Shown: piece by piece, positions 1-48,461 of the stretch
Layout of the letters: each line of letters opens with the position of its first letter
Numbering within the stretch: the first letter of the stretch is position 1
Origin: an uncultured Lentisphaeraceae bacterium
Lineage (GTDB): Bacteria > Verrucomicrobiota > Kiritimatiellia > RFP12 > UBA1067
Length of the DNA stretch: 64,000 bases
Direction: 5' to 3'
Assembly: GCA_964386865.1 (NCBI GenBank)
Contig: CAYLUN010000011.1
Coordinates: 12,058 to 76,057, forward strand
The notes under the pieces: generated by a model
Database searches by the model: none
What the model was told of the DNA's origin: nothing
Seen by the model: only the letters and a program-made list of their open reading frames with translations
Program-made: the position numbers and the translations under genes

Positions 1-166
1 GATCATAGATTTTAGACGTGGGATTTGGGAGAATGGGAACTCGCGAGCGGGGAAGGTTCAAAGAGAGAGGAACGCTCGACGTTCAGGTTGGGAAGCGCCT
101 GACGGCGCCACTACGAACGAGAGAACGCACGAGGTTAAACGCGAGACGCAAGTGAGGGACGAAGCC

Positions 167-3022: not shown

Positions 3023-3072
3023 GGACGTTGCCTCGTCGCGGGCGCGGACGGCAGGGGCTGCCGTCCCTACCG
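3017..3072 (+). terminator. GC-rich hairpin overlapping the stop codon of the upstream gene (putative intrinsic terminator, no T-run)
   Basis: CGGTAGGGACG (3017-3027) is the exact reverse complement of CGTCCCTACCG (3062-3072). An inner stem GACGGCAG/CTGCCGTC is also present. Confidence 0.3.
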
Positions 3073-3204
3073 GGCGGGGCTGGGGCGCTGCGGCTTCGGC
3101 TCGCGCTGGAGGGCCCGCCTCCGTGCGGGCCGCGGACGCGTCAGGCCGCCGGTTCTTGGAGCCGAGAAGACTGTGTGTAACGAACAAACAAAGGAAGAAC
3201 AGAG

Positions 3205-3906
3205 ATGAATACGAGAGCGATGATGGGTGCTTTGGGTGTGGCGGCGGCGCTGGCGCTGGCGGGCGGGTGCGCGTGCCCGATGAAGTCGTGTTGCCCGATG
3301 GCGGCGAAGAAGGGTTCGGTCGCCTTCGATAACGCCTCGTTCTACGGCAAGGACGGCAAGTTCGACGCCGAGAAGGGCAAGGACGCGGTGATGGCGCTGG
3401 CCGCCTATCACGGGTATCCGACCTTCCCGGGGATGCGCGAGCAGATCTGGGTCTCGGACTACAACACCGGGCAGTTTATGAAGCTCGGGCTCGCGGCGAT
3501 CATGTTCAAGAACAACGAGGAAGACCGCTACATGCTGATGGACCTGTTCCTGATGCCCGGGCAGATGCTGCCGGAGCACTGGCATGAGGACGGCGACAAG
3601 AATCCGGCCAAGCGCGAGGGCTGGCTGGTGCGTTGCGGGCTCTCGCACATCGTGGGCGAGGGCGAGCCGAACCTGGGCGCCGGCGTCACGGTTCCTGCGA
3701 TCCACATGAATGGGACGGTGACGGTGAAGCACGAGACCGTGGCTAAGGCGGGCACCTTCGTGCCGCTGTCGCGCGTCTACTCGCGCCACTGGCAGCTGGC
3801 CGGGCCCGAAGGCGCGATCATCACGGAGGTCGCGAACGTCCACACCGACAGCGCCGTGCGCCACTCGGACAAGGCGCTCAACGACTTCTTCCTCGGCAAG
3901 AAGTAG
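3205..3906 (+). CDS. Cupin-like lipoprotein, hypothetical
   Basis: RBS AAAGGAAG precedes the ATG. There is a lipoprotein signal (LALAGGCA). A cupin-like metal motif PEHWHEDGD...E is present. Confidence 0.5.
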   Translation: MNTRAMMGALGVAAALALAGGCACPMKSCCPMAAKKGSVAFDNASFYGKDGKFDAEKGKDAVMALAAYHGYPTFPGMREQIWVSDYNTGQFMKLGLAAIMFKNNEEDRYMLMDLFLMPGQMLPEHWHEDGDKNPAKREGWLVRCGLSHIVGEGEPNLGAGVTVPAIHMNGTVTVKHETVAKAGTFVPLSRVYSRHWQLAGPEGAIITEVANVHTDSAVRHSDKALNDFFLGKK

Positions 3907-3960
3907 GCGGCCTAGAAATGGGCGATTCTCTGGCGAGCGTCCACGCGAGCCGTATCGCTA

Positions 3961-4089
3961 CAGCAATTCTAAATTTGACCCGCCGCGCGCTGTGAGAAGG
4001 CTCTCACGAGCCCACAAACGGAAACGCCTCGCTTTCGCACGTTTGTAGTGGCGCCGTGAGGCGCTTTCTAGTCAAATTCAGAATTGCTG
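3961..4089. repeat. Structured intergenic element: 19-bp inverted repeat (1 mismatch) enclosing three internal hairpins, between convergent genes
   Basis: CAGCAATTCTAAATTTGAC (3961-3979) pairs with GTCAAATTCAGAATTGCTG (4071-4089). Internal stems are GTGAGA/TCTCAC, ACAAACG/CGTTTGT and GCGCC/GGCGC. Confidence 0.45.
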
Positions 4090-4213
4090 GTGTCGCAGGG
4101 CCATGCCGGCCGCACATCAGGTAAAACCGATTTCGCGTGTCGGCGGGCTCGTCGCGCCCGACGTACTGTGCGCGGGCCGTCCGTCCGATCGCCAACCTCC
4201 GGGTGCCCGATTC

Positions 4214-7200
4214 TCAGCGAAGCAAGAGCAGCGTGCGGGGCGAGGGCGGCCACTGGGTGCGGAGGAAGCCGGCGCCGGTCAGGTAGGGCGAGAGGCGGCT
4301 CGCGCCGTAGACGCCCTCCAGCTTCTGGTTGCCGTTGACCGTGAGCGTGTGGACGGTCTGCGTGCCGACGTAGGCGAGGTCGACGGAGGCTCCGCTTAGG
4401 ATCGACACGTTTGCGGCGGGCGGCAGGACGGCGGGGCCGGCGAGGCGCAGGACGCCGTTGCTGGCGACCGTCGTGCCGGTGTAGGCGTTCGTGCCGGCCA
4501 AGACGAGTGTGCCGACGCCGGTCTTGACGAGCGAGGCGCCGTTGTTAAACTGGCCCAGGTTCATCAGCGTGCCGGCGCGCGCGTTGAGGACGTCGATGCG
4601 CTGTGTGGCCGTGCCGATCACGTGGCCGGTCATGTCCAGCGTTCCGCCGTTGAGGTTGATCGTGCTGAGGCTGTTGCTGCCGAGGTCGCGTATGTCGGCG
4701 TTGCAGGCGAAGGTGCCTCCGTTGACATTGAGAGTGCCGGTAGCGGAGCCGCCCCCGCTTTGGGAGGCGAGCGAGAAGGAACCGCCGGAGAGCACCGTGA
4801 AGACGCCGCCGCTGACCGTCAGCGTAGCCGTGGCCGCACCGGTGCGGATGCCGCTCTTGGCCGCCATGAGGAGGTTGCTCGCGGTGAACGTGCCGCCGTC
4901 GAAGGAGAGGTTGCCGGTGGCTCCGCCGTTGTAGTTTGTCACCGACGTGTTGTTGTCTTCCTTGCCGAGGATCAGCGTTCCTGCAACGACCGTGGCGAGA
5001 TGACCCCGCAAGTCGAGCGTGCCGACCGGCGTGGCGGAGGTGCCGGTGGCGGTCTTGGCGCCGAGCGTGAGATCGGCGGCGGGCCTGGTGCGGCCAATGA
5101 GCGTCAGCGTGCCCGGCGAGCCGGCGGCCTGCGAGGCGAACTTGAGGGTGCCGCTCGACTTGGAGAGGCCGATGTTGACGGTGTTGGCGGCGATCACGTT
5201 CGCGCCCGCGCCGAGGACGACCGTGCTCGTGCCGCCATTGCTGCCGCTGGAGTGGCCGATCTGCACGGCGGTGGACGCGACGGCGTTGCTGGTGTCGGAG
5301 AGCGTGAGCTGGCCCGACGTCGTCTGCCCGAAGCCGACGCGCAGCTCGCTGAGCGGCGCGTCGGGGGTGCCGAACGACACGCAGGCGAGCCCCGCGAGGT
5401 CGAGCCAGCAGGCGTTGTAGTAGTTCTGCGTGGACTGGGCCTTGCCGACTGTGACCAGCGCGGCGGCGTTCGTCACGAGCAGGCTGCCGCCGCCGAAGAT
5501 GCGGCAGCGCGTGGTGCTGTTGGTGCCGGAGTCGGTGCCGACGGTGAGCCCGCCAAGGCCGGTGAGCGCAAGCGTCTGGCCGGGCGCGACGGAGACGAGG
5601 TTGGTGAGGGCCGCGTTGGTGCTGGCGACCAGGACGGTGGCGAGGGTCTGGCTGAAGGCGCCGAGCGCGAGGGCGCCCGCGCCGGCGGTGGTGCCGAGGG
5701 TCACGGCGCCGGACACGGGGAGGGCGTCGGTCGCGCCGAGCAGCAGCGTTCCGCCGCTGACGGTCGTCGCGCCGCTGTAGGTGCTCGCGCCGGAAAGGGT
5801 CAACGTGCCGCGCGTCTGCGCCAGCGCGAGGCGGCCGCCGTTCGGTCCGTCGGCGAGCGCGCCGCTGATCGTGCAGCCTGCGGCCGAGGCGGCGGTGCCC
5901 TGCGCGAGCGTCTGGGTGGCGCCGGTGCCGGCGGTGCCGGCGATGGGGCCGGTGAAGGTCGCGCCCGCCGCGTCGCCGGCGAGGGTGGTGTCGGCCAGCA
6001 GCGTGAGCGGGGCCGAAAGGGTGGCGGAGGCTGTGGCGAGGCGCAGGGCGCCGCGGCCTTCGGCGTTGCCGGAGCCCCGGACGGAGACGCCCGCGAAGCT
6101 GGCCGCCGCGTTGGAGAGCATGAGCGTGGTGCCAGCGTCGATCTGCACCGTCGCGGCGGGCGCGAGGACGCCGCCCGCGTCCCACTTGTCGCCGGTGGCG
6201 CCCGCGCCCGCGAGCTGGACAATGCCGGCGAAGCCAGTTGCGCCGGGCAGCGCGGTGGCGCGGGCCGTGGCGCCGGAGGAGAAGTTCAGGCGGAGCGTGC
6301 CGGTGCCGGAGAAAGCGTTTGTCTTTGCGACGAGGCCGGCGACGGTGCTGACGTTGTCCAACTGCAGGGTTGCGCCGGGGCCGATCGCGACGGGGCCGGT
6401 GCCGAGGCCGCTCTGGCTGGCGGAAAGGGTGGCGTAGGTGGTGCCGGCGCCGCTGGCGAGGGCGAGGCCGCCGCCGTAGGTGTTCGCGCCGGTGAGGCTG
6501 AGCGAGGCGGCGCCGGATTTGGCGAGCCCGCCGCCGCCCTGTAGCGGGCCGCTGAGGAGGAAGGCGGCCGAGCCGTCGCCCTCCACGGAAACGGTCGTGA
6601 CGAGCGTGGCGGCATTGGCGAGCGTGTAGGTGAGCCCGTCCGGGCCGGCTTCGGCGTCGAGCCTGAGCGCGGGCGCGACGGAGCCGTTGCCGAACGCGAG
6701 CGGCTGCCCGACGAGCGCGACGGCGGCCGCGCCGCTCGCGGGGCCTGTGCCCGCGAGGCGCAGGATCGCGAGCTGGAAGGTGCCTGCGTTGTTATTGGTG
6801 GCGGTGAGGGTGCCGGGCTCAAGGGCCTGGCCGGGCAAGAACTCCACGGCGCCATTGGTGTGCGAGAAGGCGGGCGTGCCGGCGAGCCAGCTTGCGCCTT
6901 GCGTCCACGGGAGCGCGGCGCCGGCGGCGGTGTTCGTCCAGACGCTTGAGGCGACGACGGAGAGGACGAACGAGTCGCTGGCGGTGTCGATGCCGTCGCT
7001 GACGGTGAGCGTGACGGTGGCGGTGCCGGTCTGGTTCGAGGCGGGTGTGAGCGTGACGGTGCGTTCCGCGCCGCTGCCGCCGAAGAGGATGCGGTTGGTG
7101 GGCATGAGCGTGGCGTTGGATGACGCGGCCGAGAGGGTCAGCGCGGCGGCGTCTGTCTCGGCGTCGCCGACGGTGAAGGGGATTGGCCCCGTGGAGGTGT

Positions 7201-13898: not shown

Positions 13899-14432
13899 AT
13901 GAAAAACCTGTTCTTCATAGCTGCCTGTATCGTCGGCGGTCTTCTGTCCGGCTGTGTGGTGTCCGATCCGTGGGCTCCGCAGTATACGAGTCCCGTTGTG
14001 GTGGATCCGACTCCGACTTATGTCACGCCGGCACCGCGCGCGCCGAAACCGATTGTGGTGGATCCGGTGCCGTTCATCGTTCCGCCGGTTGATCTCCGCC
14101 CGGGAAGGCCTGCCGATCCGATTCGTATTACGCCAAACCCGCACGGAACACCCCACTTTAACCCCGGCCGGGGCCAGCATGGGATTCCCCAGCATCAACC
14201 GTCGCCTCAGCTCCAGCATCAGCCCTCGCACCAGCCTGGGCATCAGCCCTCGCATCAGCCCTCGCATCAGCCTGGCCAGCAGCTCCAGAAGCAGCCTGGG
14301 CAGCAGATCCAGAAGCAGCCTGGGCAGCAGATCCAGAAGCAGCCTGGGCAGCAGCAACAGCAGCAGCAGCCTGGGCAGCAGCAAAAGCCTAAGCAGGAGC
14401 AGCAACTTCAGACGCAGCCGAAGCACCCCTGA
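13899..14432 (+). CDS. Pro/Gln-rich tandem-repeat lipoprotein, hypothetical
   Basis: RBS GGAAAGGA precedes the ATG. Lipobox LLSGC is present. The C-terminal half is made of HQPS/HQPG and QKQPGQQI peptide repeats, encoded by near-perfect nucleotide tandem repeats at about 14190-14400. Confidence 0.7.
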   Translation: MKNLFFIAACIVGGLLSGCVVSDPWAPQYTSPVVVDPTPTYVTPAPRAPKPIVVDPVPFIVPPVDLRPGRPADPIRITPNPHGTPHFNPGRGQHGIPQHQPSPQLQHQPSHQPGHQPSHQPSHQPGQQLQKQPGQQIQKQPGQQIQKQPGQQQQQQQPGQQQKPKQEQQLQTQPKHP

Positions 14433-18117: not shown

Positions 18118-19017
18118 ATGACGGGTACGATTTTCGACATCAAGCGGTTTTCGATGCATGACGGCCCCGGAATACGCACCACGGTTTTCCTGAAGGGCTG
18201 TCCGCTGTCGTGCGTCTGGTGCCACAATCCGGAGAGTCAGGCTGTTGCGCCTAGCCTGCTGTATCGGCCGGAGCTGTGCCTGCGGTGCGGGCGGTGCGTG
18301 GCGCAGTGCCCGCAGGGCGCGTGGGTGGCGGGTGAGGGTGAAGCGCCCGTGCGGGACGGGGCGCGCTGCCACGCCTGCGGCGGGTGTGCGGAGGCTTGCC
18401 CGGCGGAGGCGATCACCCGCGTGGGGCGCGAGATCGGTGCCGACGCGCTCGTCGAGGTTTTGGCCAAGGACCGGCTGTTCTTTGACGAGTCCGACGGCGG
18501 AGTGACGTTTTCGGGAGGCGAGCCGCTGGGCCAGCCGGCGTTCTTGAAAGCGGTGCTGGAGCGTTGCCGACAGATGGGTCTGCACAGCGCGGTGGATACG
18601 TGCGGGTTCGCGTCGCGGCAGACGATGCGAGAGGTGGCCGAGCGCGCCGACCTGCTGCTGTACGACCTGAAGCTGCTCGACCCGGAGGCACACCGCCGCT
18701 ACACGGGCGTTTCGAACGAGGACATCCTCGCGAATTTGCGCATGCTGGTCGCGGATGGCCAGCGCGTGGAGATCCGCATGCCGATGATCCCGGGCATCAC
18801 GGATACGGCGGAGAATGTGACGGCTGCTGCGGCGTTTGTCGCGTCTCTGCCGTCGCCGCCGCGCGTGCGGCTGCTGGGTCACCACCACGCGGCGATGTCG
18901 AAGTACCGGCGCTTCGGCATGGAGCACCAGCTGGGCGAGATGGAAGATCCCTCGCCCGACCATATGGCGGAACTCGCGGCGCGCATGCGGGGCCTGGGCG
19001 TTGATGCGTTTGTGTAG
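18118..19017 (+). CDS. Glycyl-radical enzyme activating enzyme (radical SAM, with extra ferredoxin-like clusters)
   Basis: N-terminal CPLSCVWCHN (CxxxCxxC) is present. Two additional clusters follow: CLRCGRCVAQCP and CHACGGCAEACP. RBS AGGAGA. Confidence 0.9.
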   Translation: MTGTIFDIKRFSMHDGPGIRTTVFLKGCPLSCVWCHNPESQAVAPSLLYRPELCLRCGRCVAQCPQGAWVAGEGEAPVRDGARCHACGGCAEACPAEAITRVGREIGADALVEVLAKDRLFFDESDGGVTFSGGEPLGQPAFLKAVLERCRQMGLHSAVDTCGFASRQTMREVAERADLLLYDLKLLDPEAHRRYTGVSNEDILANLRMLVADGQRVEIRMPMIPGITDTAENVTAAAAFVASLPSPPRVRLLGHHHAAMSKYRRFGMEHQLGEMEDPSPDHMAELAARMRGLGVDAFV

Positions 19018-19153
19018 GATTGCGGCGGCGATGGGCGCGGCATCCGCTTGACGGACAAGCCTCGACACTGCTGGGGCGGGTCAGTCAGCACGCGGGTAGC
19101 GCGTCGGGCGTCTTTAAGCGGAACCCGTTCACGGGGCCAAGAAGAGGCGCACA

Positions 19154-19179
19154 TTTCTCACACCTCCGGAGGTGTGAGA
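19154..19179. promoter_or_regulatory. Perfect 26-bp palindrome TTCTCACACCTCCGGAGGTGTGAGAA (copy 1), about 143 bp upstream of the GRE start
   Basis: Exact palindrome read directly from the sequence. An identical copy lies at 24962-24987, upstream of the 25115 gene. Confidence 0.5.
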
Positions 19180-19321
19180 ATGGGATACATCACGTCATGT
19201 GCAGAGGGAGTGGGGGCAACGGCCCTCCTGGTGTATTTCTCTCTTTCCGGCTTCGGCCGGGCGTTTACAAGCGGCGGCGAAACGTGTACTCTAGTGCTCC
19301 AGTTCAGAAAGAAGGTGTGTG

Positions 19322-21682
19322 ATGAATGATCGGGTTGCCAAGCTGCGCCAGGCCAGTTTCGAGGCCGAGCCGACTATTTCAACGGAGCGCGCCGTGTGGA
19401 TCACGCGCTTCTACCGCGAGCACATCGGTAAGCACTCCGTGCCGGTCATGCGGGCCAAGGCCTTCGAATATCTCTATGCGAACCAGAATCTGTACATAGG
19501 CGGCGGCGAGCTGATCGTCGGCGAGCGCGGGCCGAAGCCCAAGGCGGTCTCCACCTATCCTGAGCTGACCTGCCACAGCGAAGAGGATCTGCGCATCCTG
19601 GGCAGCCGTAAGAAGACGCACTATGGAACCACGGAGGAGGACGTGCGCGTCTACCGCGAGGAGGTCATCCCCTTCTGGCGCGGCCGCACCATGCGCGAGC
19701 GGCTCTTCGCGGGGCTCTCGGACGCGTGGAAGGCGGCTTACGAGGCCGGGCTCTTCACCGAGTTCATGGAGCAGCGAGCCCCGGGCCACACCACCTTCGA
19801 CGGCAAGTTCTACCAGAAGGGCCTGCTGGGCTTCAAGGCCGATATCGCCGCCGCGCGCGCCGCGCTCGACTTCCTGAGTGACCCCGAGGCCGCGCCCAAG
19901 CGCGAGGAGCTGACGGCCATGGCCATCGCCTGCGACGCGGTGATGACCTTCGCGCGGCGCCACGCCGAGCTGGCGGAGCGGATGGCCGCGGCCGAGCCCT
20001 GCCCGCAGCGTAAGGCCGAGCTGCTGCAGATCGCGGCGACCTGCCGCCGCGTGCCGGCCGAGGCCCCGCGCGATTTCCGCGAGGCGCTGCAGATGTACTG
20101 GTTCATGCACCTGGGCACCATCACGGAGCTGAATGGCTGGGACGCCATGAACCCCGGCCACCTCGACCGCTACTTCTATCCGTTCTATCAGCGCGACCTC
20201 GAGGCGGGCGCGCTGACGCGCGAGCAGGCCAAGGAGCTGCTGGAGTGCTTCTGGATCAAGTTCAACAACCACCCGGCTCCGCCCAAGGTGGGCGTGACGG
20301 CCGAGGAGAGCGGCACCTACAACGACTTCACCAACATCAACCTCGGCGGCATCCTGCCCGACGGCGGCGACGGCGTGAACGAGCTGTCCTACCTGATGCT
20401 CGAGGTCATCGACGAGATCCACCTGCTGCAGCCGCAGGCCAACCTCCAGCTCAGCCGCAAGAACCCGGATCGCTTCCTCAAAGCCGCCTGCGAGGTGATC
20501 CGCAAGGGCTACGGCTACCCCTCGGTCTTCAACGCCGACGGCGTGGTCGAGCAGATGGTGCGCTGCGGCAAGCGGATCGAGGACGCGCGCGAGGGTGGCA
20601 CCAGCGGCTGCGTCGAGACGGGCGCCTTCGGCAAAGAGGCGTACGTGCTGACCGGCTACCTCAACACGCCCAAAATCTTGGAGCTTGCGCTGAACAACGG
20701 GCGCGACCCGCGCACCGGCAAGCAACTGGGGCCCGAGACGGGCGACCCGCGGCAGTTCGCGTCGCTGGACGACGTCTTCGCGGCGTTTGAGCGCCAGCTG
20801 CGCCATGTCGTGGATCTGAAGGTGGCGGGCAACGCCTTCATCGAGAGGATGTACGCCGCAGAGATGCCCGCCGTCTTCCTCTCCGTGCTGATCGACGACT
20901 GCATCAAGACCGGCAAGGACTACAACGCGGGCGGCGCGCGCTACAACACGAGCTACATCCAGTGCGTGGGCATCGGCACCATCACGGACAGCCTGTCCGC
21001 CATCGGAAAGCATGTGTTTGAGACGCATGCGCTCACGATGGGGCAGATGGCAGACGCTCTGGTGGCTGATTTCGCCGGCAGCGAGCCGCTGCGCCTGACG
21101 CTTTGGAACAAGACGCCGCGCTACGGCAACGACGACGACGCGGCCGACGGGCTCATGAAGCGGGTTTTCGAGGCGCTCTACTCGGCCATCGACGGCCGCC
21201 CCAACCTGCGCGGGGGCCAGTACCATGTCGACATGCTGCCGACCACTTGCCACATCTACTTCGGCTCGGTCCTCGGCGCGACGCCGGACGGCCGCAAGGC
21301 GGGCACGCCGGTTTCGGAGGGCATTTCGCCGGTGCAGGGCGCGGATCGCCAGGGGCCCACGGCCGTGGTCAAGTCAGCCGCCAAGATAGATCAGCTCCGC
21401 ACGGGCGGGACGCTGCTGAATATGAAGTTCCTGCCCGGCACGCTGCGCGGGCAGGAGGGCATCGACAAGCTGACTAGCCTGGTGCGCAGCTACTTCCGCA
21501 TGGACGGCCACCACATCCAGTTCAACGTCGTGGACGCGGACACCCTGCGCGAGGCGCAGCGGCGACCGCAGGAGTACCGCGACCTGATCGTGCGCGTGGC
21601 GGGCTACAGCGACTACTTCTGCGACCTGGGTCGCGAGCTGCAGGACGAGATCATCTCCCGCACCGCGCAGAGCGAGTTCTGA
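19322..21682 (+). CDS. Glycyl radical enzyme, pyruvate formate-lyase family, 1,2-eliminase/dehydratase class (glycerol/propanediol/hydroxyproline dehydratase-, CutC- or IslA-like)
   Basis: C-terminal glycyl radical motif VRVAGYSDYF. Cys-loop GTSGCVETG carries the Glu two residues after Cys, as in the eliminase GREs. Length 786 aa. The ATG at 19322 follows GAAGG. Confidence 0.9.
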   Translation: MNDRVAKLRQASFEAEPTISTERAVWITRFYREHIGKHSVPVMRAKAFEYLYANQNLYIGGGELIVGERGPKPKAVSTYPELTCHSEEDLRILGSRKKTHYGTTEEDVRVYREEVIPFWRGRTMRERLFAGLSDAWKAAYEAGLFTEFMEQRAPGHTTFDGKFYQKGLLGFKADIAAARAALDFLSDPEAAPKREELTAMAIACDAVMTFARRHAELAERMAAAEPCPQRKAELLQIAATCRRVPAEAPRDFREALQMYWFMHLGTITELNGWDAMNPGHLDRYFYPFYQRDLEAGALTREQAKELLECFWIKFNNHPAPPKVGVTAEESGTYNDFTNINLGGILPDGGDGVNELSYLMLEVIDEIHLLQPQANLQLSRKNPDRFLKAACEVIRKGYGYPSVFNADGVVEQMVRCGKRIEDAREGGTSGCVETGAFGKEAYVLTGYLNTPKILELALNNGRDPRTGKQLGPETGDPRQFASLDDVFAAFERQLRHVVDLKVAGNAFIERMYAAEMPAVFLSVLIDDCIKTGKDYNAGGARYNTSYIQCVGIGTITDSLSAIGKHVFETHALTMGQMADALVADFAGSEPLRLTLWNKTPRYGNDDDAADGLMKRVFEALYSAIDGRPNLRGGQYHVDMLPTTCHIYFGSVLGATPDGRKAGTPVSEGISPVQGADRQGPTAVVKSAAKIDQLRTGGTLLNMKFLPGTLRGQEGIDKLTSLVRSYFRMDGHHIQFNVVDADTLREAQRRPQEYRDLIVRVAGYSDYFCDLGRELQDEIISRTAQSEF

Positions 21683-21700: not shown

Positions 21701-21866
21701 CGAACGCTGAACGGCAAAGTGAAGGCCAGGCTGGTCAGGCTCGCGCTGGGGGGCGAGGCTGCGCCGAGCCGCGGACCGAACGCTGAACGCCGAACGCCGA
21801 ACGGCGAAGTGATGTCCAGGCTGGTCAGGCTCGCGCTGGGGGGCGAGGCTGCGCCGAGCCGCGGAC
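21701..21866. repeat. Tandem duplication, about 90-bp unit x2, immediately downstream of the GRE stop
   Basis: Unit 21701-21776 and unit 21791-21866 share an identical 50-bp core CCAGGCTGGTCAGGCTCGCGCTGGGGGGCGAGGCTGCGCCGAGCCGCGGA. A partial third head copy GAACGCTGAACGC lies between them. Confidence 0.7.
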
Positions 21867-22432
21867 GGCGGAGACGCCGTCCATCTCCGCCTTTGCCTAA
21901 ATGGTGGCTGTCCATCAGCAGGCGGCCCGCACGGAGACGGGCCCTCCAACGCGAGAATAGCCGTTTCGAATCACCTCGCGCTGGAGGGACGACCTCCGTG
22001 ACGTCCTTGCGCTCCAGGCCAAATACATTTCGGCGGTGGTATGAGGGCGCACCGGCGTTCCGTTGTCCCGTCGCCAGATAACGTAAGGATAGCCGACCTG
22101 TAGCTCCGCCGCTTCTGTCGGCGGAGAGGAGGCGTGTTTCCGGCGACACCGGAACTACAGAGCCAGCGGCCCATGGTCTAAGGCTAGCGTAGCGAGGGTT
22201 CTCGCGCCATTTGATTCACAGACGCTTGATACATGAATAAGTGCGAGCACTTGGCGAATAGCGTGGGTGAAGTGCTGTGCTGACAAGAATTTAGACGCGT
22301 CGGCCCTGTAGCGAGGGCTTGACCCCGTACAGCTCCTCCGTGTACGCTTCTAAATATTGGTATCCTGCGCCAGTTCATCTGTCGGGCCGGTGGATTGCGT
22401 CTGGACGCCTATAGTCGTTGGCGGAAGAAGAA

Positions 22433-22837
22433 ATGATGGAAATCCGGATCAAAGGGAATGACCTTCCACAGACAGTCTTGGAGGAGATCGGCCGCGTGGC
22501 CGATCACGCAGGGCTTCAAGTGGACGAGGTCCTGCATGATCCCGTCACGGGAACAGTGACCATTCCGTTTAACCGTTTTCCCATCATAGGGAAGTCAGTG
22601 CTCGGTATCACGCGCCACACCGTTGCACCGGTCAGGAGCAGATTGACGATTCGCAAAGTAACTGATTGCCAGATTAATCAAACGCCAGAGCCCGGACTGA
22701 GAGTGACCATCATCTTCGGTCTGAAGGTCGAGAAGAACACGGTCTTCATGTGCTCTGCGGAGGAAGATAAAGGGCAGCAAATGTTCTCAATGACGTGCCG
22801 AGTCGCGGAACTCGACATCGAAATCAAAGATGAATGA
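22433..22837 (+). CDS. Hypothetical small protein (134 aa), atypically low GC, translationally coupled to the downstream MFS permease
   Basis: The ORF has roughly 50% GC against 68% for the window. It ends in ATGA, overlapping the start of the next gene. No recognisable motifs. The track start at 22418 is TTG; the ATG at 22433 is preferred. Confidence 0.5.
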   Translation: MMEIRIKGNDLPQTVLEEIGRVADHAGLQVDEVLHDPVTGTVTIPFNRFPIIGKSVLGITRHTVAPVRSRLTIRKVTDCQINQTPEPGLRVTIIFGLKVEKNTVFMCSAEEDKGQQMFSMTCRVAELDIEIKDE

Positions 22838-24303
22838 CAGCGCCAACCACCGTAGGCAGGGTACGCTGCGCGCCCCTGCTGCGGGACGTTCGCATGCCGA
22901 TTTGTTCTGAGAGACGGTTGAAGTCAAAAGACGAGGAAGGGCGGTTCTTGGATCGTGAGAACAATAGGCGCTGGTGGCACCCGCGCCATAACCTGCTGGC
23001 GACCCGGCGCGGGCGTCTGACGGCCTTTTTCCTGCTCTACGTGACCGAGGGCATTCCCAACGGTTTCGCGCTGGTGGCGATGGTGACGCAGATGAGGCGG
23101 TTGGGTGTCAGCCCCGAGAACATCGGGCTGTTCTCGGCGTCCTTTACGCTGCCATGGGCCTTCAAGTGGGCGATGGGCCCTTTTGTGGACCTGTTCTACA
23201 TCGACCGGTGGGGGCGGCGGCGGGTCTGGATCGTCGCGGCGCAAGTGCTGATGTGCCTGACGCTGATGGCCGCGCTGGCCGTTGACCTGAAAACGCAGAT
23301 CCAGACGCTCACGGCCCTGATCATTTTGCACAACGTGTTCGCGGCGACGCAGGACGTGGCCATCGACGCGCTGGCCTGCGGCACGCTGCCTGAGCATGAG
23401 CGTGGCACGGCCAACGGACTGATGTTCGGGGGCGCCTATCTGGGGCAGGCCGTGGGCGGAGCGGGCGTCTTGTGCTTGTTGGATTGGGGCGTGCCGCTAG
23501 CCTCCACCTACTTCTTCGTTACAGGGGCGATCCTGTCGGTCACGGTGCTCGTCAGTTTGCGTCTGCGCGAACCGCTACACGGTCACGCCTCTTATGCGGA
23601 AGGGCCGCGCTGGCGGGCGTTGGCGCAGGCTGTTCACGGGTATTGGAGAGACGCGCTGCGGGCTTTCTTTGGGCGGCGCGCGGCTGCCGTGGGCCTGCTT
23701 GTCGCGCTGTTCCCGCTGGGCCCCTATGCGCTGTCGCTGGCGCTTTGCAACAACCTGGCCGTCGAGATGGGGATGTCGGACGGACTGATCGGACGGCTGA
23801 TGCTGCTCGGAACCATACTGGCCGCCGTGTTCTGTGTGGTGGGCGGGTACGTGTCCGACCGGCTCGGGCGGCGTCAGACGCTGTCGTTCGCCGCAGTCGG
23901 AATGGCGCTCACGACGGTCGCGCTGGCGTGGGGCCTGCACCGGCAGGGCTGGCTGTTTCCGGTGGCGATGGATGCGGCGGTCAAGCCGGTGGCTTCGGCG
24001 TTCCTGCTGCATCTGTACATCGGAGCCGGGCTGGCGTATTCGGTCTTCCAGGGGCTGATGTACGGATCACGGACGGCGCTGTTCATGGACGTCTGCAACC
24101 CTGCGGTGGCGGCCACGCAATTCACGGCCTACATGGCCTTGCTGAACGTGGTCATCAGCTACTCGACGTACTGGCAGTGCCGGTTTGTTTCGACGCTGGG
24201 CTATCCGCTGACGCTCGTGCTAGACTCCTGTTTAGGCCTCGTGTGCCTGGCACTGTTGCCGTTCATGACGAAGCATACTGAGCATACGGTCGGGGGGGAT
24301 TAA
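22834..24303 (+). CDS. MFS transporter, AmpG/PAT-family-like permease
   Basis: 12 predicted TM segments. AmpG-like motifs are present (ILHNVFAATQDVAIDALA). The true start may be at an internal Met. Confidence 0.7.
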   Translation: MTAPTTVGRVRCAPLLRDVRMPICSERRLKSKDEEGRFLDRENNRRWWHPRHNLLATRRGRLTAFFLLYVTEGIPNGFALVAMVTQMRRLGVSPENIGLFSASFTLPWAFKWAMGPFVDLFYIDRWGRRRVWIVAAQVLMCLTLMAALAVDLKTQIQTLTALIILHNVFAATQDVAIDALACGTLPEHERGTANGLMFGGAYLGQAVGGAGVLCLLDWGVPLASTYFFVTGAILSVTVLVSLRLREPLHGHASYAEGPRWRALAQAVHGYWRDALRAFFGRRAAAVGLLVALFPLGPYALSLALCNNLAVEMGMSDGLIGRLMLLGTILAAVFCVVGGYVSDRLGRRQTLSFAAVGMALTTVALAWGLHRQGWLFPVAMDAAVKPVASAFLLHLYIGAGLAYSVFQGLMYGSRTALFMDVCNPAVAATQFTAYMALLNVVISYSTYWQCRFVSTLGYPLTLVLDSCLGLVCLALLPFMTKHTEHTVGGD

Positions 24304-24307
24304 TCCA

Positions 24308-24913
24308 ATGGCTGAGTCGTTCCTGTTTGTGGTTCGGGTGTGGCTGAAGATCCTGTTCATCTTCACGCCGTTTCTCATCCTATCGATCTTTCTCGGCATG
24401 ACGCGCGAGTTCGACACGGCTCGGCGCCGCGCGTTCGCGCTGCGGGCGACCGTCGCCGTGGCGGTCATCTGCTTCGTGGTCTACTTCTTCGGCTCGGTCA
24501 TCTTCGCGCTCTTCGGCATCACGCTTGACGCGTTCCGTATCGGCGCGGGCGCGCTGCTCTTCCTGTCGTCGATCGGCCTGGTGCAGGGAAAGGCTCCGCC
24601 GACGCCCAACGGACAGGAGGACCTTGTGGTCGTGCCGTTCGCCATGCCGATCATCGTCGGGCCGGCCGTGATGGGCGTGCTGTTCGTGCTCGGCGCCGAC
24701 GTGGCAAACCTGAAGGAGCGGCTGCTGGGCGCGCTCGCGCTCGGGCTGGCGGTCGCCTGTCTCGGCGCGCTTCTGCTGGTGGCGACGCAGGTGGAGCGCT
24801 GGGTCGGCAAGGACAAGTTGGAGATCATCAGCAAGGTGACCGGGCTGATCCTCGCCGCGCTGGCGGCCCAGATGATCTTCACCGGGGCGCGACACTTCCT
24901 CGTCGGCCCGTGA
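24308..24913 (+). CDS. MarC-family (UPF0056) integral membrane protein
   Basis: Six TM helices. The sequence is typical of the MarC/NAAT family (FTPFLILSIFLGMT...). Confidence 0.75.
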   Translation: MAESFLFVVRVWLKILFIFTPFLILSIFLGMTREFDTARRRAFALRATVAVAVICFVVYFFGSVIFALFGITLDAFRIGAGALLFLSSIGLVQGKAPPTPNGQEDLVVVPFAMPIIVGPAVMGVLFVLGADVANLKERLLGALALGLAVACLGALLLVATQVERWVGKDKLEIISKVTGLILAALAAQMIFTGARHFLVGP

Positions 24914-24961: not shown

Positions 24962-24987
24962 TTCTCACACCTCCGGAGGTGTGAGAA
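24962..24987. promoter_or_regulatory. Perfect 26-bp palindrome TTCTCACACCTCCGGAGGTGTGAGAA (copy 2), about 128 bp upstream of the 25115 start
   Basis: Identical to copy 1 at 19154-19179. It lies in the non-coding leader, which the track mis-annotates as an N-terminal extension of ORF 24938. Confidence 0.5.
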
Positions 24988-25114: not shown

Positions 25115-28100
25115 ATGGTTGAAGGAAGGCGACGCGACGGGCGGCGGGTTGTGGCTGCGACCGGGATGTGGCTGGCGCTATCCGGCGCCGGGCTGGCCCT
25201 GGAGAAAGAGGTCTCGCTGGTGACCGGGCAGCCGGTCGGCGAGCTGGCGGTGGCGGGACGGCTGTCCATCGACCTCCACGCGGTGTTCATGGTGTCGCGC
25301 ACGTACGACAAGGACACGGTGCTCAACTGGTACAGCTGCGGCTACTCAGGCGGCGGGCAAGGCGGCACGAAGGTGGGAGGCGCGTTCGGGGACTTCGGCT
25401 TTCAGGTGCCCTTCAAGGAGCGCGATGCGCGCTATCCGCACGCGGTGACCGTGGACAAGGTGCCCGTGGTGCGGTTCGACGGCAACGACGTGCTCAAGGG
25501 CAACATCGTCGCTGAAGCCGACGTGGCCGGGCGGCAGGACTGGGCGCTGGAGGTCTGGGTGCGCGCCGCCGGGCCGGACGCCGGCACGATTCTCGGGTGG
25601 CAGTCGAAGGATGGCCGCTCGGCCTCGGCGCCGCTGGCCTTCCCGAAGCGGGCGGCCTCAGGGGCGTGGCGCCACCTGGTGCTGAACTGCACGGCCGAGA
25701 GCGAGGCTTGCTACCTCGACGGCGCCAAGGTCTCAAGCGCCAGGCGCGAGACGGTCATCGGCGAGGGGCAGCTGATGGTGCTCGGCGGAGCGGCGGCGGA
25801 CAGGCCCTCGTTCAAGGGCGACCTGGCCGCCGTGCGCCTGCACGACCGGGCGATGACGGAGGCGGAGATCGCGCACAACTTCGCGGGCGGCGCAATGTTG
25901 GGTACGGAGATGCACAGCTGGTGGCGGACGGATCCGGGCACGTGGTGGAGCCAGGAGTCCGAGCACTTCCGGCACTGCGTCGGCCTCGCGGAGATGAAGA
26001 AGTGGGGCGAGCGGCAGCGCAAGGAGTTCGACGCGCGCGTTCCGCAGATGTTCGACATGGCTGAGCTGATCTACCGCACCTACTCGGAGCGGCTGGCGCT
26101 GAGGAGCTCGGTCGTGAGCCGGCGTCCGGAGAAGCGGGGCGACGGCATCAAGTACAAAACGCCGATCCAGCCGGCGGACGGCAGCTGGATGGGCGTGGAC
26201 GACGACTTCGGCTGGGCCTGCCAAGGGGCGGGCCACATCAACCCGCACGAGCTGGCTCACGGGTGGCAGGCGATGACTGGCGGCATGGCCGGTAACTGGT
26301 GGGAGGCGCACGCCAATTTCCCACAGACTTACAACGGCATCTACCAGACCGTCCCGATCATCCTGTCCGAGTGCTCGGCCTTTCCCGCCAGCGGCCGCAC
26401 CTACTACCACGACCGGCTGATGTTCGAGCACCTGGCCCAGACACCAGAGTACGGGCCGATGTTCATCTCCAAGCTCTGGTACGACGGCCCGACTGAAGCG
26501 GACAAAGATCCGTACCCGTGGGCGACGTTCGCGCGTATCAACCCGCTACCGGAGCGGACGCTGGCCGACGAGTACGCGCGCATGGCGATGCGGAACGTGA
26601 CGTGGGACTACACGACCTTCAAAGAGCGCCAGCCCGGCGAGCAGGGCAACACGCCGTACGGCAATGACGGCGCTGTCAGGGAGGAGAACCTCTATGCGGC
26701 GGCCGCCGCGAGCATGCGGGCGGAGATCGAGAGGTACTCGCGGATCCTGCTCGAGCCGATCGCCGGTGAGCCGGGCTGGTGGCGCGTGCCGAAGGAGCAG
26801 GCGCCCCAGCAGCTCGGCTGGAACATCTGCCCGCTGGCGTGCACGGCGGGCCGCGTGTCGGCTGCGCTCTCAGGGTACGTCAATCCGGCGCGCGGGCCGG
26901 ACTGGCGGGCCGCGTTCGTCGGCGTGGACGCAGGAGGAAAGCCGCGTTACGGGGAGATCTTTGCACCGGGCACGCTCAGTCGGTTTGAGGTGACGCGCGA
27001 CATCAAGGAGCTCTATCTCGTTGTCTGCGCCACGCCCACCAACATGCTCAACATCGACATGGTGGGCGACTTTCGCTCATTCGAGCAGGAGCCGTTCCCT
27101 TACCGAGTCAGGCTCGAGGGGTGCGCGCCGCTGGACCTGCTGACGCCGCAAAAGCCCACGGTGGCCGGCGCGCAGCACGCGAACGGCGGCGGCTTCGTCG
27201 AGAAGACGGCGCAGGTCGAGGCGAGCGCCTACGTAGGCCCGCACGCGCAGGTGCTGGGCCACTCCAAGGTGCTCGGAAGCGCGCGGGTTGAGGATTTCGC
27301 GGTCGTTCAGGACGCTACGGTGAAAGACCGCGCGGTGGTCTCGGGGCATGCGCGAGTCGCGGAAGCATCCACCGTGGCAGAGGACGCCAAGGTTCGCGAC
27401 TATGCGGTGGTAAAGGGGCAGACGACGGTGCGGGGGCGGGCCAAGATTCTCGAGCACGGCGCGATCTTTACCCATAAGACGTGCAAGGATCAGGTGGTGG
27501 TCAAAGGCGTGGCGTCCGTCTACGGCGGCAATCAGAGCGGCAGCGCCATGCTCGACGGGTACTATGCCAAAGGCAACGAAATCACCAAGGGCAAGTGGTT
27601 CACCTGGAGCTGGGGCCAGGGCAAGAACGTGGGCGAGGCGGATGAGGAGTTCGGCGGGCTCTACCTGCGGATGGACTTCGAGCGGCCACACCCCTGGATG
27701 GCGCCCGACGACTTCGGCGTCACGTGGGGGTGGCTGGCGGGCGGGGCGACGTGCGCCACCGAGCCTTCGCTGGTCAGCTACCGGAGCGCCCTGCTGCGCG
27801 CCGAGGAGGCGGCGCCGGCGCTGGAGAGCGGCCACCTCGACGACAAGCCGGTCGCGGAGCTGTTGGCCGGCTATCTGCGGCCGCCGGAGACGGGCGACTA
27901 CGTGTTCTGGATCTCGGCGGACGACGAGGGCGAATTCTGGCTGGGCCAGGCGGGCGGCACGACGGCCGACACGCTGCTGTGCGGCAACCCGTTCTGGGCG
28001 GGCCACAAGGAATTCACGCGCTTTCCGTCGCAGAAGTCCTCTCCGGTGCGCCTCGAGAAGGGGAGGTTCTACCCGCTCAAGGCGCTGCACGCCAACAGCC

Positions 28101-28753
28101 ACATGGCGGGCTCGCTGGCTGTCGCGTGGACGGCGCCCGGCGCGGCGGCGCCCGTGATCATCGGCGCGCCGCACCTGTGGGCGGACCGCGAGGGTCGGCG
28201 CCCGGGCGTGGCGCGCCGCATCTGGGGCGACGTGGCCAAAGTCGCTGACCTCGTGAAGCGCCCGGACTATCCTGAGGGCCGCGTGCGCACGGCGGGCGGC
28301 GCGCTGGCGCTGAACGGCAAGGACCAGTACGTGGAGCTTCAGAAGGATGTCGCCGACATGGCCGCTTGCACCTATACGGCCGCGTTCCGCTGGGACGGCG
28401 GAGAGGAAGGGGCCCGCGTGTTCGAGTTCGCCAATCCCAATGGCGATGCGCTGTGGCTAAGCCCCTCCGACAAGGGGCGCCTCGTGTTCGCTATCCGCAA
28501 GGGTCAGACCCTCGAGCAGGCGGCCGCCGCAAAGCCGCTCAAGCAGGGTGTCTGGGTCACCGTGCAGGTGTCGCTGAACGGGCCGGTCTGCTCGGTGTCC
28601 GTCAACGGGCAGGCGGTGGCGGAGAACCGTCGCATGACCTTGCGCCCCGACAGCGTCCGCGCCACGCGGTGCTACCTCGGGCGCGGCCTGCAAGGCCGGC
28701 ACTTCGGCGGCCGGGTCGATCAGTTCTCCGTACGCGTCGGCGCGGGCGGATAG
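25115..28753 (+). CDS. Large secreted multidomain protein (1212 aa): LamG-like, central HExxH-containing region with repetitive V/A-rich segment, PA14, LamG-like
   Basis: ATG 25115 follows AAAGGGGG, with signal peptide MWLALSGAGLA. LamG_3-like region (DLAAVRLHDRAMTEAEI). HELAHGWQ motif. PA14 (GDYVFWISADDEGEFWLG...). Second LamG (LNGKDQYVEL...VTVQVSLNG). Confidence 0.75.
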   Translation: MVEGRRRDGRRVVAATGMWLALSGAGLALEKEVSLVTGQPVGELAVAGRLSIDLHAVFMVSRTYDKDTVLNWYSCGYSGGGQGGTKVGGAFGDFGFQVPFKERDARYPHAVTVDKVPVVRFDGNDVLKGNIVAEADVAGRQDWALEVWVRAAGPDAGTILGWQSKDGRSASAPLAFPKRAASGAWRHLVLNCTAESEACYLDGAKVSSARRETVIGEGQLMVLGGAAADRPSFKGDLAAVRLHDRAMTEAEIAHNFAGGAMLGTEMHSWWRTDPGTWWSQESEHFRHCVGLAEMKKWGERQRKEFDARVPQMFDMAELIYRTYSERLALRSSVVSRRPEKRGDGIKYKTPIQPADGSWMGVDDDFGWACQGAGHINPHELAHGWQAMTGGMAGNWWEAHANFPQTYNGIYQTVPIILSECSAFPASGRTYYHDRLMFEHLAQTPEYGPMFISKLWYDGPTEADKDPYPWATFARINPLPERTLADEYARMAMRNVTWDYTTFKERQPGEQGNTPYGNDGAVREENLYAAAAASMRAEIERYSRILLEPIAGEPGWWRVPKEQAPQQLGWNICPLACTAGRVSAALSGYVNPARGPDWRAAFVGVDAGGKPRYGEIFAPGTLSRFEVTRDIKELYLVVCATPTNMLNIDMVGDFRSFEQEPFPYRVRLEGCAPLDLLTPQKPTVAGAQHANGGGFVEKTAQVEASAYVGPHAQVLGHSKVLGSARVEDFAVVQDATVKDRAVVSGHARVAEASTVAEDAKVRDYAVVKGQTTVRGRAKILEHGAIFTHKTCKDQVVVKGVASVYGGNQSGSAMLDGYYAKGNEITKGKWFTWSWGQGKNVGEADEEFGGLYLRMDFERPHPWMAPDDFGVTWGWLAGGATCATEPSLVSYRSALLRAEEAAPALESGHLDDKPVAELLAGYLRPPETGDYVFWISADDEGEFWLGQAGGTTADTLLCGNPFWAGHKEFTRFPSQKSSPVRLEKGRFYPLKALHANSHMAGSLAVAWTAPGAAAPVIIGAPHLWADREGRRPGVARRIWGDVAKVADLVKRPDYPEGRVRTAGGALALNGKDQYVELQKDVADMAACTYTAAFRWDGGEEGARVFEFANPNGDALWLSPSDKGRLVFAIRKGQTLEQAAAAKPLKQGVWVTVQVSLNGPVCSVSVNGQAVAENRRMTLRPDSVRATRCYLGRGLQGRHFGGRVDQFSVRVGAGG

Positions 28754-44460: not shown

Positions 44461-44692
44461 GGGTGCGATTGCAAACTATTGCAATCGCACAGAATTCAGA
44501 AGCCAGAAGCCAGAATTCAGGAGTTGGATGCCAACGAGTTATGTCCGATTCGCGCGAGATTCTTCCTGTCTCCTCTTTGGGAGACACCTTTTTGGGCGGC
44601 GCTTTCGTATGTAAGTCGTTGCGAAGCAATTCTGAATTCTGACTCCTGAATTCTGACTTCTGGGTGCGATGCAACGAAGTAAAATCGCACCC
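44461..44692. mobile_element. MITE-like element copy A (232 bp) with 10-bp terminal inverted repeats GGGTGCGATT/AATCGCACCC and 9-bp target-site duplication GGGGCATTC
   Basis: Near-identical to 45667-45898. The flanking 9-mer GGGGCATTC appears at 44452-44460 and again at 44693-44701. Internal palindromes are GCGATTGCAAACTATTGCAATCGC and GTCTCCTCTTTGGGAGAC. Confidence 0.75.
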
Positions 44693-45666: not shown

Positions 45667-45898
45667 GGGTGCGATTGCAAACTATTGCAATCGCACAGAA
45701 TTCAGAAGCCAGAAGCCAGAATTCAGGAGTTGGATGCCAACGAGTTATGTCCGATTCGCGCGAGATTCTTCCTGTCTCCTCTTTGGGAGACACCTTTTTG
45801 GGCGGCGCTTTCGTATGTAAGTCGTTGCGAAGCAATTCTGAATTCTGACTCCTGAATTCTGACTTCTGGGTGCGATGCAACGAAGTAAAATCGCACCC
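45667..45898. mobile_element. MITE-like element copy B (232 bp), same TIRs, different 9-bp TSD CATTTGCAA
   Basis: Essentially identical to copy A. The TSD appears at 45658-45666 and 45899-45907. It lies in the divergent promoter region between the CPBP gene and the phosphomannomutase gene. Confidence 0.75.
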
Positions 45899-47291: not shown

Positions 47292-48461
47292 ATGGTTAAC
47301 GAGAGCGTGTATAACGAGCTGCTGAAGAAGTACCGCGCGCACTTCGGCCGCGACCCGGAGGTCGTGTCGTATGCGCCGGGTCGCATCGAGGTGCTGGGCA
47401 ACCACACCGACTACAACGAGGGCTTCGTCTTCTCGGCGGCGATCAACTTCGGCACCTTCTTCGCGGCGTCGAAGAGCGCGTCGAACGCCTGCCGCCTCGT
47501 GGCGGGCGACCTGATGAAGGAGGTCGCCTTCGACGTCGCGGGCATCGAGGCCTCGACGAGTGACACCTGGCAGAACTATGTCAAGGGCACGCTGGCCGGA
47601 CTCTCGGCGGTCAAGGCGCCCGCGTGCGGGTTCGACGGCATGTTCTTGGGCAACATTCCCCTCGGCAGCGGGCTCTCCAGCTCGGCCGCGCTCGAGATGT
47701 GCACGGGCCTCGCGCTCAGCAAGCTTTACGGCATATCGGTCGACACCGTGACGCTGGCGAAGATCGGCCAGAAGGCGGAGCACGTCTACGCGGGCTGCAA
47801 GTGCGGCCTGCTCGACCAGATTTCGAGCCTCGCGGGCCAGGCCGGCAAGCTGGTCAAAACCGATTTCCGCTCCGTGGTCTACGAGACCGTCGAGATGGGC
47901 GCGGACGCCTGCTTCCTGATGTGCAACACGCACGCGAAGCACGCGCTGGTGGACGGCGCGTACAACAAGCTGCGCGAGGCGTGCGAGACCGCGGCCGCGC
48001 ACTTCGCCAAGGCCCTGCGCCACCCGGTGACCGCGCTGCGCGACGTGAGCATGGCCGAGTGGGCGATTTACAAGCGCGGCTTGCCCGAAGCGGTGGCGAA
48101 CCGCGCGGCGCATCCGATCGGCGAGGACGAGCGCGTGCTCAAGGGCGCGGAGCTGCTGGCCGCGGGCGACCTCGCGGGCTTCGGCCTGCTGATGTTCGAC
48201 TCGCACGAAAGCTCGCGCACGCTGTTCGAGAACTCCTGCGAGGAGCTGGACGCGGTGGTCGACGCGGCGAAGAAGATTCCCGGCGTGCTCGGCGCGCGCC
48301 TCTCGGGCGGCGGCTTCGGCGGCTCGGTGGTGGTGCTGGTGCACCCGCGCGACGCGGAGACGGCCTCGGCCGCGCTGGCCAACGCCTACGCCGCGAGGTT
48401 CGGCAAGCCGTGCGACGTGAGCGTGATCAAGCCCGCGGCCGGTGCGCACATCGTGAAGTGA
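47292..48461 (+). CDS. galK: Galactokinase (GHMP kinase)
   Basis: Galactokinase signature APGRIEVLGNHTDYN. GHMP ATP-binding motif PLGSGLSSSAA. Confidence 0.85.
   Translation: MVNESVYNELLKKYRAHFGRDPEVVSYAPGRIEVLGNHTDYNEGFVFSAAINFGTFFAASKSASNACRLVAGDLMKEVAFDVAGIEASTSDTWQNYVKGTLAGLSAVKAPACGFDGMFLGNIPLGSGLSSSAALEMCTGLALSKLYGISVDTVTLAKIGQKAEHVYAGCKCGLLDQISSLAGQAGKLVKTDFRSVVYETVEMGADACFLMCNTHAKHALVDGAYNKLREACETAAAHFAKALRHPVTALRDVSMAEWAIYKRGLPEAVANRAAHPIGEDERVLKGAELLAAGDLAGFGLLMFDSHESSRTLFENSCEELDAVVDAAKKIPGVLGARLSGGGFGGSVVVLVHPRDAETASAALANAYAARFGKPCDVSVIKPAAGAHIVK

Follow-up and report, generated by a model that had tools for sequence, protein, structure and literature searches.

A recurrent 26-bp palindrome beside a glycyl-radical enzyme gene is probably a recognition site of an undescribed double-ArsR protein family

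We analysed a 64-kb stretch of DNA, hereafter called the window, in which a 26-bp palindrome, TTCTCACACCTCCGGAGGTGTGAGAA, is present in exactly two exact copies. The surrounding genes lie on the plus strand, and Pfam assignments agreed with the calls made for them in the original prediction. A gene for a radical SAM enzyme that activates glycyl-radical enzymes (activase; 18118..19017) lies upstream of copy 1 and is followed by the gene for the glycyl-radical enzyme itself (GRE; 19322..21682), which carries PFL-like and Gly_radical domains and whose close homologues carry the name trans-4-hydroxy-L-proline dehydratase in their source records. Further along are the genes for an MFS transporter (22834..24303) and MarC (24308..24913) and, downstream of copy 2, a gene for a secreted LamG/PA14/DUF6055 protein (25115..28753). 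The GRE-MFS-MarC block (MFS-MarC at 22834..24913) is in this way bracketed by the two palindromes. The same GRE-MFS-MarC gene order was found at another locus, L042, where a different gene directly follows MarC and the palindrome is absent. The stretch of ~1.1 kb behind the GRE gene, where L042 has a Peptidase_M24 (prolidase-like) gene, contains a 76-nt unit repeated at 95% identity (21701-21776 and 21791-21866, the first starting 19 nt past the GRE stop codon) as well as an ORF (22418-22837) that gave no Pfam match.

Each copy of the palindrome is a perfect 12-2-12 inverted repeat, TTCTCACACCTC-CG-GAGGTGTGAGAA, and is assigned to neither strand. Copy 1, originally placed at 19154-19179, lies at 19155..19180 after a correction of 1 bp, and the identical 26-mer of copy 2 lies at 24962..24987; the reported exact recurrence was otherwise confirmed. 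The activase stop codon is 138 nt before copy 1, with 84 nt between the palindrome end and the GRE -35 element described below and 141 nt between the palindrome and the GRE ATG. Copy 2 follows the MarC stop codon by 49 nt and precedes the LamG/PA14 ATG by 127 nt, and the two distances to start codons agree with the 128-143 bp reported earlier. No third copy of the 26-mer was found in the window with up to 3 mismatches allowed, and the half-site was confined to copies 1 and 2, while the relaxed pattern CACAC-N8-GTGTG gave a single extra match, with 1 mismatch, which is about the number expected by chance. Zero matches to the 26-mer were obtained in 100 dinucleotide-preserving shuffles, confirming that its recurrence is far beyond chance.

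The similarity between the two copies ends with the palindrome. Outside the 26 bp we found none, and when both intergenic regions were compared by short-word BLAST with the window and all fetched loci, the palindrome alone matched. An extended repeat or MITE was thereby ruled out, as only the 26 bp are held in common and the flanks have no matches at other loci. A plus-strand ORF of 49 codons (19180..19329), whose first base is the last of copy 1 and whose 3' end overlaps the GRE start, was not accepted as a gene, given a GC3 of 0.61 vs ~0.89 in the long ORF of the LamG protein and no match to a Pfam family. A tblastn search of the window found no encoded homologue of the regulator described below. 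We also looked for a remnant of such a gene beside the window copies, where alignments did not rise above shuffled controls.

In either strand the palindrome can form a stem of 11 bp capped by a CCGG loop, with dG at ~-17 to -21 kcal/mol and z at ~-3 to -3.7. Stable folding of each strand is in keeping with a structural hairpin acting at the level of RNA or single-stranded DNA, as a terminator that lacks a U-tract, an mRNA 3'-end stabiliser or a processing site where genes border on each other, in which case the link to a regulator would be secondary. However, a terminator scan found no T-tract after the stems and made no terminator call at either window copy, and a search of the whole window against Rfam returned zero matches at the gathering threshold, so that a known RNA family was rejected as a candidate.

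By-eye comparison of the window with L041, an orthologous locus that lacks the palindrome, revealed a sigma-70-like putative promoter upstream of the GRE gene (19264..19292, plus strand). It consists of a -35 hexamer TTTACA (19264-19269), a 17-nt spacer and a -10 hexamer TACTCT (19287-19292), and both hexamers as well as the spacer length are the same in L041; a simple consensus promoter scan did not list TTTACA-17-TACTCT. Copy 1 would lie ~130 nt upstream of the corresponding GRE transcription start. Near copy 2 no promoter was recognised.

The spacer between the activase and GRE genes measures 304 nt in the window vs 94, 39 and 36 nt in orthologous loci. The orthologous loci whose GRE is 92% and 81% identical have spacers of 94 and 39 nt and no palindrome, and no palindrome was found in orthologous activase-GRE loci wherever their DNA could be read. 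Comparison with these loci places the expanded spacer at 19018..19263 (plus strand), and copy 1 is held within the extra ~200 nt, which have no similarity to other loci or to the surroundings of copy 2, no defined boundaries and no repeats. Because the orthologous loci are without the site, regulation of the GRE gene by copy 1 is not conserved and may not occur. The original prediction had the GRE and LamG genes co-regulated from matched positions in their leaders; with the GRE promoter lying downstream of the palindrome and the orthologous loci being free of it, this claim found no support, and for the window one should not presume that the hydroxyproline-dehydratase-like enzyme and the LamG protein are regulated together. 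L041 belongs to assembly GCA_022704145.1, which has the closest GRE orthologue readable as DNA (92% identity). Just upstream of its activase-GRE genes L041 carries Wadjet/JetABCD-like genes (DUF2397, DUF2398, SMC_N and JetD_C; 164-5874), and the matching position of the window is occupied by a Metallophos gene; the neighbourhood is therefore not conserved.

We then turn to the distribution of the palindrome outside the window. When 185,579 species genomes were searched for exact matches to the 20-mer core, 8 copies turned up, confined to two GTDB metagenome-assembled genomes (MAGs), five in one labelled 'uncultured Lentisphaeraceae' and three in the other. A metagenome scan with the 18-mer core returned 22 loci, 10 of which are on contigs of 60-67% G+C (the window has 68%) and carry the form ATTCTCACACCTCCGGAGGTGTGAGAAT or its symmetric variant AATTCCACACCTCCGGAGGTGTGGAATT. 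The other 12 (L008-L011, L014-L017, L023, L026, L028 and L029), mostly of low G+C, were set aside as unrelated hairpins containing the core by chance. Since exact cores were searched, perfect copies are over-represented in this sample. The names of neighbouring proteins identify the lineage of the palindrome loci as Kiritimatiellia, and a phage or viral origin was discarded after zero matches in a collection of viral contigs.

At three of the loci (L001, L019 and L012) two palindromes ~600-680 bp apart bracket the gene of a ~188-200-aa protein. This protein consists of tandem ArsR/SmtB-type winged helix-turn-helix modules within a single chain (~185-205 aa across lineages). NCBIfam model NF033788 matched it in two stretches with 75.7 bits (cut-off 55), Pfam assigned HTH_5, MarR_2 and TrmB to both halves, and its sequence matches in the PDB were YgaV, ArsR, SmtB, NolR, HlyU and BigR. 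An AlphaFold model based on 74 homologues (pLDDT 93.9, pTM 0.87) has two winged-helix domains, and each half superimposes on ArsR/SmtB structures with a TM score of 0.6-0.72; structure comparison found no solved chain that matches the whole tandem. Within a chain, the sequences of the two winged-helix domains are not the same. The double-ArsR family has more than 300 members in a collection of 5.8 billion proteins, and in the literature searched (open-access papers and preprints) we came across neither tandem ArsR proteins nor the motif.

Two cysteines, C12 and C23, are nearly invariant in the family (WRTCR ... RLxCL; numbering of P0003, family alignment A2) and belong to helices one and two of the N-terminal ArsR module. 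The pair hints at a sensor of redox state, thiols, persulfides or metals, and no verified match of the conserved pair to a known sensing motif was found. Most of the family members P0001-P0120 come from very short contigs of ~0.7-2 kb, and one contig, L037, ends exactly at a palindrome. This suggests that repeated palindromes or paralogous gene copies break metagenome assemblies.

The context of eight further family members was fetched, and related palindromes were present at the gene in all eight. Altogether, the same or a related palindrome is found at the 5' end of the double-ArsR gene in 11 of 11 lineages, and a second copy follows the gene in nine of these (L001, L019, L012, L030, L033, L035, L039, L043 and L045); at L038 and L040 the related sites are restricted to the upstream region or the start codon. 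The assembly with the closest readable GRE orthologue, GCA_022704145.1, also encodes a family member with flanking sites (L043). None of the remaining fetched loci encodes the regulator gene.

The sites share the general form CACAC-N8-GTGTG, commonly CACACNTC-NN-GANGTGTG, and their centre and outer bases vary by protein lineage. For DNA of this G+C we estimate the chance frequency of CACA[CT]-N8-[AG]TGTG at ~2.6e-6 per base. The centre CCTC(C/T)GGAGG accompanies the proteins that share 55-66% identity with the L001 protein, and those that share 49-58% go with different centres: CTTCCGGAAG in L035, CATCATGACG in L039, CATCACGATG in L040 and yet another variant in L038. In L030, TTCTCACACCTCTGGAGGTGTGAGAA ends at the ATG and is repeated 13 nt after the stop codon. 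L033 has ATTCTCACACCTCCGGAGGTGTGGGAATG at the start and CTCCCACACCTCCGGAGGTGTGGGAG immediately past the stop codon, with a perfect 46-bp palindrome 88 nt beyond, and L035 has ATTCCACACTTCCGGAAGTGTGGAAT once upstream and twice downstream. L043 and L045 carry TTGA(C/T)ACACCTCTGGAGGTGTGTCAATG at the start and CTGACACACCTCC(G/A)GAGGTGTGTCA at the 3' end. Sites of the form CACAC-N8-GTGTG with still other centres (CTTCCAGAAG, CTTCATGAAG, CGTTGTAACA, TGTCATGACA and CTTCTGGAAG) were observed at L003 3595 and 4135, L020 9704, L033 12922 and L035 6028, on contigs that also hold the CCTCCGGAGG or CTTCCGGAAG type, which implies that there are several regulator/site specificities per genome.

At the regulator gene of L019 the element TTGCGC-17-TACGAT abuts the palindrome, and similar -10-like hexamers are present in L001 and L033. 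The called start ATG lies 3 nt past the right-hand GTGTG in 7 lineages, so that the right arm, GGAGGTG, constitutes the ribosome-binding site; in L040 and L038 the ATG lies 1-2 nt past it. This geometry suggests an autorepressed promoter. Sequestration of the Shine-Dalgarno sequence was rejected as a general function of the palindrome: GGAGGTG is a ribosome-binding site at regulator genes only, few of the other copies are close to the start of an ORF, and in L035 GGAGG is replaced by GGAAG. One and the same conserved gene, for a ~461-aa secreted alpha/beta-hydrolase-like protein, comes next after the downstream copy in L019, L043 and L045.

The palindrome is thus physically associated with the regulator gene and co-varies with it, the encoded protein is made up of DNA-binding domains, and the architecture of the site is operator-like. 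The explanation that we consider probable, on the strength of these sequence comparisons, is that the 26-bp palindrome is the high-affinity 12-2-12 recognition site of an undescribed family of single-chain double-ArsR proteins, with the member that would bind the window sites being encoded elsewhere in the genome. The original prediction of a transcription-factor operator is supported as far as a site-like 12-2-12 palindrome linked to an ArsR/SmtB-type gene in 11 of 11 lineages is concerned, with the encoded protein a strong candidate for the factor that the prediction had left unnamed, but not with respect to promoter-bound co-regulation. With two unlike winged-helix domains, a single chain is asymmetric and would not be expected to read a perfect palindrome, so the explanation has to suppose two chains at each site. 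At its own gene, where the copy adjoins a -10-like hexamer and reaches as far as the start codon, the protein would repress by occlusion, and the second copy present in most lineages, past the stop codon and before the next gene, could serve as an operator or roadblock for that gene. The few further copies per genome would be additional targets, among them both window sites, where the bound protein would sit off the core promoters. Any effect on the GRE or LamG gene might then be that of a repressor, a roadblock or an insulator, or might come about by looping between the two sites.

Among known systems the closest likeness is to the ArsR/SmtB family (SmtB, ZiaR, CzrA, AztR/AzuR, BigR and SqrR), to which both halves of the protein correspond by sequence and fold. 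A 12-2-12 layout is typical of ArsR/SmtB operators, and sites of this family have been reported 'upstream or within' genes (PMC8790569). The window palindrome has exactly this 12-2-12 layout, and the placement of a site between the -10 hexamer and the regulator start codon resembles the zia and smt operator-promoters. However, known ArsR/SmtB proteins are homodimers of ~100-120-aa chains, whereas here two non-identical modules are joined in one ~188-aa chain. ArsR/SmtB half-sites follow a TGAA/TTCA-type consensus, from which CACACNTC differs, and their operators are imperfect, in contrast to the perfect palindromes found here, which often extend to 32-46 bp. Furthermore, the system described here usually has a second copy after the gene and conserved in-frame sites inside unrelated genes, and it has no adjacent metal- or sulfur-resistance genes.

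A characterised precedent for operators on either side of a regulator gene is the winged-helix repressor CapS (PMC13373217). As here, palindromic sites are present on both sides of the CapS gene, one being autoregulatory and the other located at the promoter of a downstream operon (PMC13373217). CapS nevertheless differs in its domains, a STAS domain and one winged helix, and in its TTAA half-sites; no orphan sites elsewhere in the genome are reported for it, and its downstream operons are immune operons, unlike the neighbours found here.

Not all sites are located where a promoter operator would be expected. Sites lie between convergent genes in L003/L021 and L024, as do downstream copies in L035, and others are situated in frame inside coding sequences. 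In neither position does a promoter operator have an obvious role, and with copies found in both, the purely promoter-bound operator of the original prediction was not upheld. In a D-aminoacylase gene the palindrome is in frame in L007, L006 and L027 and encodes PSHTSGGVRISE; in the L006 version a symmetric C>A/G>T substitution replaces two residues and leaves the palindrome intact. An alignment of 120 D-aminoacylase homologues revealed no indel at the site and a conserved loop length, which ruled out a clean insertion. Orthologues of at least 77% identity (77-87%) retain x-H-T-x-x-G-V-x, which corresponds to CACAC-N8-GTGTG, amid varying surrounding residues, and more distant homologues are without it. 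Such a pattern in the aligned sequences speaks for prolonged selection on the motif as DNA and makes a recent insertion less likely. Two further genes contain such sites: a 34-bp palindrome lies in frame inside an Aas-like gene in L033, and in L039 three different CACAC-N8-GTGTG palindromes occur within 150 nt (19441-19588), all of them in frame and encoding HHTSRGVV, FHTSGSVE and CHTSESVT. The L039 sites fall in the central loop of an MFS protein, in a stretch of ~270 nt over which GC3 drops from ~1.0 to ~0.7.

In-frame copies such as the three in the low-GC3 MFS loop and the one in the Aas-like gene are what a selfish or mobile palindromic element, similar to REP/RAYT or to the Rickettsia palindromic elements and inserting between genes and into tolerant loops of proteins, might leave behind, in which case the bracketed double-ArsR gene would belong to a mobile cassette. 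Such mobility would also agree with regulator gene neighbourhoods that differ between lineages, with the bracketing of the gene on both sides in 9 of 11 of them, with copies identical over 26-28 bp in unrelated contexts, with the presence of copy 1 in ~200 nt that are missing from orthologous loci, and with the many regulator contigs that are very short, as if repeats broke their assembly. Nonetheless, we regard it as quite improbable. The bracketed gene encodes DNA-binding domains only, with no transposase or recombinase domain, copy number is low, the window contains no degenerate copies, nothing past the palindrome is common to the copies, and no target-site duplications were seen. In addition, the D-aminoacylase site shows no clean indel, its loop length is conserved and it is kept across many orthologues, and the collection of viral contigs gave no match.

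REPs are imperfect palindromes that bear a conserved GTAG head; a genome has tens to hundreds of degenerate copies of them outside genes, and the gene associated with them encodes a Y1 transposase. The sites described here share with the REP/RAYT system short palindromes that are dispersed mainly between genes and a gene for an associated protein that is flanked by copies; however, they are perfect and small in number, certain copies lie in frame within coding sequences, and the associated protein has DNA-binding domains only. No Y1 (IS200/IS605-like) transposase was found in the flanked gene, for which Pfam and NCBIfam gave winged-helix families only. A REP-like hairpin terminator, which the original prediction had offered as an alternative, accordingly lost its footing: exact copies number 5 and 3 in the two MAGs, the window has no degenerate copies and no T-tract or terminator call, and the flanked gene is not a RAYT transposase. 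In contrast to Rickettsia palindromic element-like insertions, the sites here do not combine sporadic presence with a clean indel.

The ParB-binding parS sites are few, conserved, long palindromes that are independent of gene context, partly intragenic, and found beside the gene of their binding protein. Here, likewise, sites are few and highly conserved, some are intragenic with conservation at the nucleotide level, and some lie beside the gene of the putative binding protein. Few, very conserved, long palindromes per genome that disregard gene context, together with sites conserved in frame inside genes and sites adjoining the binding-protein gene, would fit chromosome-organising sites in the manner of parS, matS or Noc-binding sites, with the double-ArsR protein as an architectural or segregation factor and not a gene regulator. 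We consider this very unlikely, however, as the protein belongs to a different family, being ArsR/SmtB-like with no features of ParB, MatP or Noc, and several site types with different centres are present in one contig (L003, L033 and L039). P0113 and P0120 are, moreover, both listed with a longest contig of 108,977 bp, and this, like the mixture of site types, fits a diversifying family of transcription factors better than one architectural system; a local conserved target gene also exists in the form of the ~461-aa hydrolase-like gene.

The self-complementarity of the sites extends beyond what recognition of a 26-bp site would call for. Among 49 sites, perfect pairing most often continues 4 bp past the 18-bp core, and in 12 of them it continues 7-14 bp past the core, giving perfect palindromes of 32-46 bp with site-specific outer arms; about one such long palindrome would be expected by chance if the protein read only ~26 bp. 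The long perfect palindromes are not explained by protein recognition alone. They point to selected hairpin or cruciform potential, or to a mutational process of the template-switch or palindrome-generating kind.

Outer arms that vary, even within one contig, and are still self-complementary (32-46 bp in those 12 sites) count in favour of the structural hairpin introduced above, as do the many copies located 1-170 nt past stop codons, some of them between convergent genes, and the T-G mismatches in the 5' sites of L033 and L045, which would be G-U pairs on the sense strand. However, it is the sequence of the 18-bp core, and not its pairing alone, that is identical across unrelated contexts and genomes, the site centres in L039 carry A-C and C-T mismatches, and copies also face the 5' ends of genes (L001, L018, L019, L025 and L030). 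Furthermore, a hairpin would leave the association with the ArsR-type gene, in 11 of 11 lineages and with co-variation of sequence, unaccounted for. As the sole explanation it thus seems unlikely to us, and a structural RNA hairpin may be a further role of what is probably the recognition site of the double-ArsR protein.

A more far-reaching version of the double-ArsR explanation, which we put forward tentatively and hold to be considerably less probable than site recognition as such, is an undescribed cis/trans system in Kiritimatiellia and PVC bacteria related to them. In it, diversifying double-ArsR proteins would each have their own long perfect palindrome, with a CACAC-N8-GTGTG core, that brackets transcription units such as the regulator gene and, in the window, the GRE-MFS-MarC block. 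In-frame sites in conserved enzyme and transporter genes would be maintained, and the sites would be protein-dependent roadblocks, insulators or loop anchors that also need cruciform or hairpin potential, not classical promoter operators.

Kiritimatiellia and their relatives are abundant anaerobic degraders of glycans, and in the literature searched we found no papers on Kiritimatiellia transcription factors or operator motifs. The analysis links a striking motif to a candidate factor and to a family of more than 300 members whose lineage-specific operators are predictable, and the protein-DNA pair, 26 bp and ~188 aa, is directly testable. If the intragenic and gene-end sites are functional, they would offer a clear natural example of selection at the nucleotide level prevailing over protein sequence, and regulation would operate via roadblock, insulation or looping and not via promoter occlusion.

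The window contains further repeats away from the palindrome. Two direct repeats of 232 nt (44461-44692 and 45667-45898) are 100% identical, non-coding and of low G+C (~50%), and flank a high-GC coding stretch of ~0.9 kb. Each contains hairpins (GGGTGCGATTGCAA...TTGCAATCGCAC) and short AGAATTCAG/AGAAGCC tandem motifs, and the pair may represent a regulatory region that was duplicated, the boundary of a cassette or an artefact of the assembly. A long hairpin at 48484-48550, with 27-nt arms that are 93% complementary and a 13-nt loop (GTATGTTGTGCCGCCTTCAGGCGGCCC / GGGCCGGCTGAAGGCGGTACAACATAC), lies between two plus-strand ORFs (47292-48461 and 48596-50035). Finally, coding-like tandem repeats with a periodicity of 12/24 nt (CAGCAGxxCCAGAAGCAGCCTGGG...) are found at 14193-14419 and suggest a low-complexity, Q/P-rich repeat protein.
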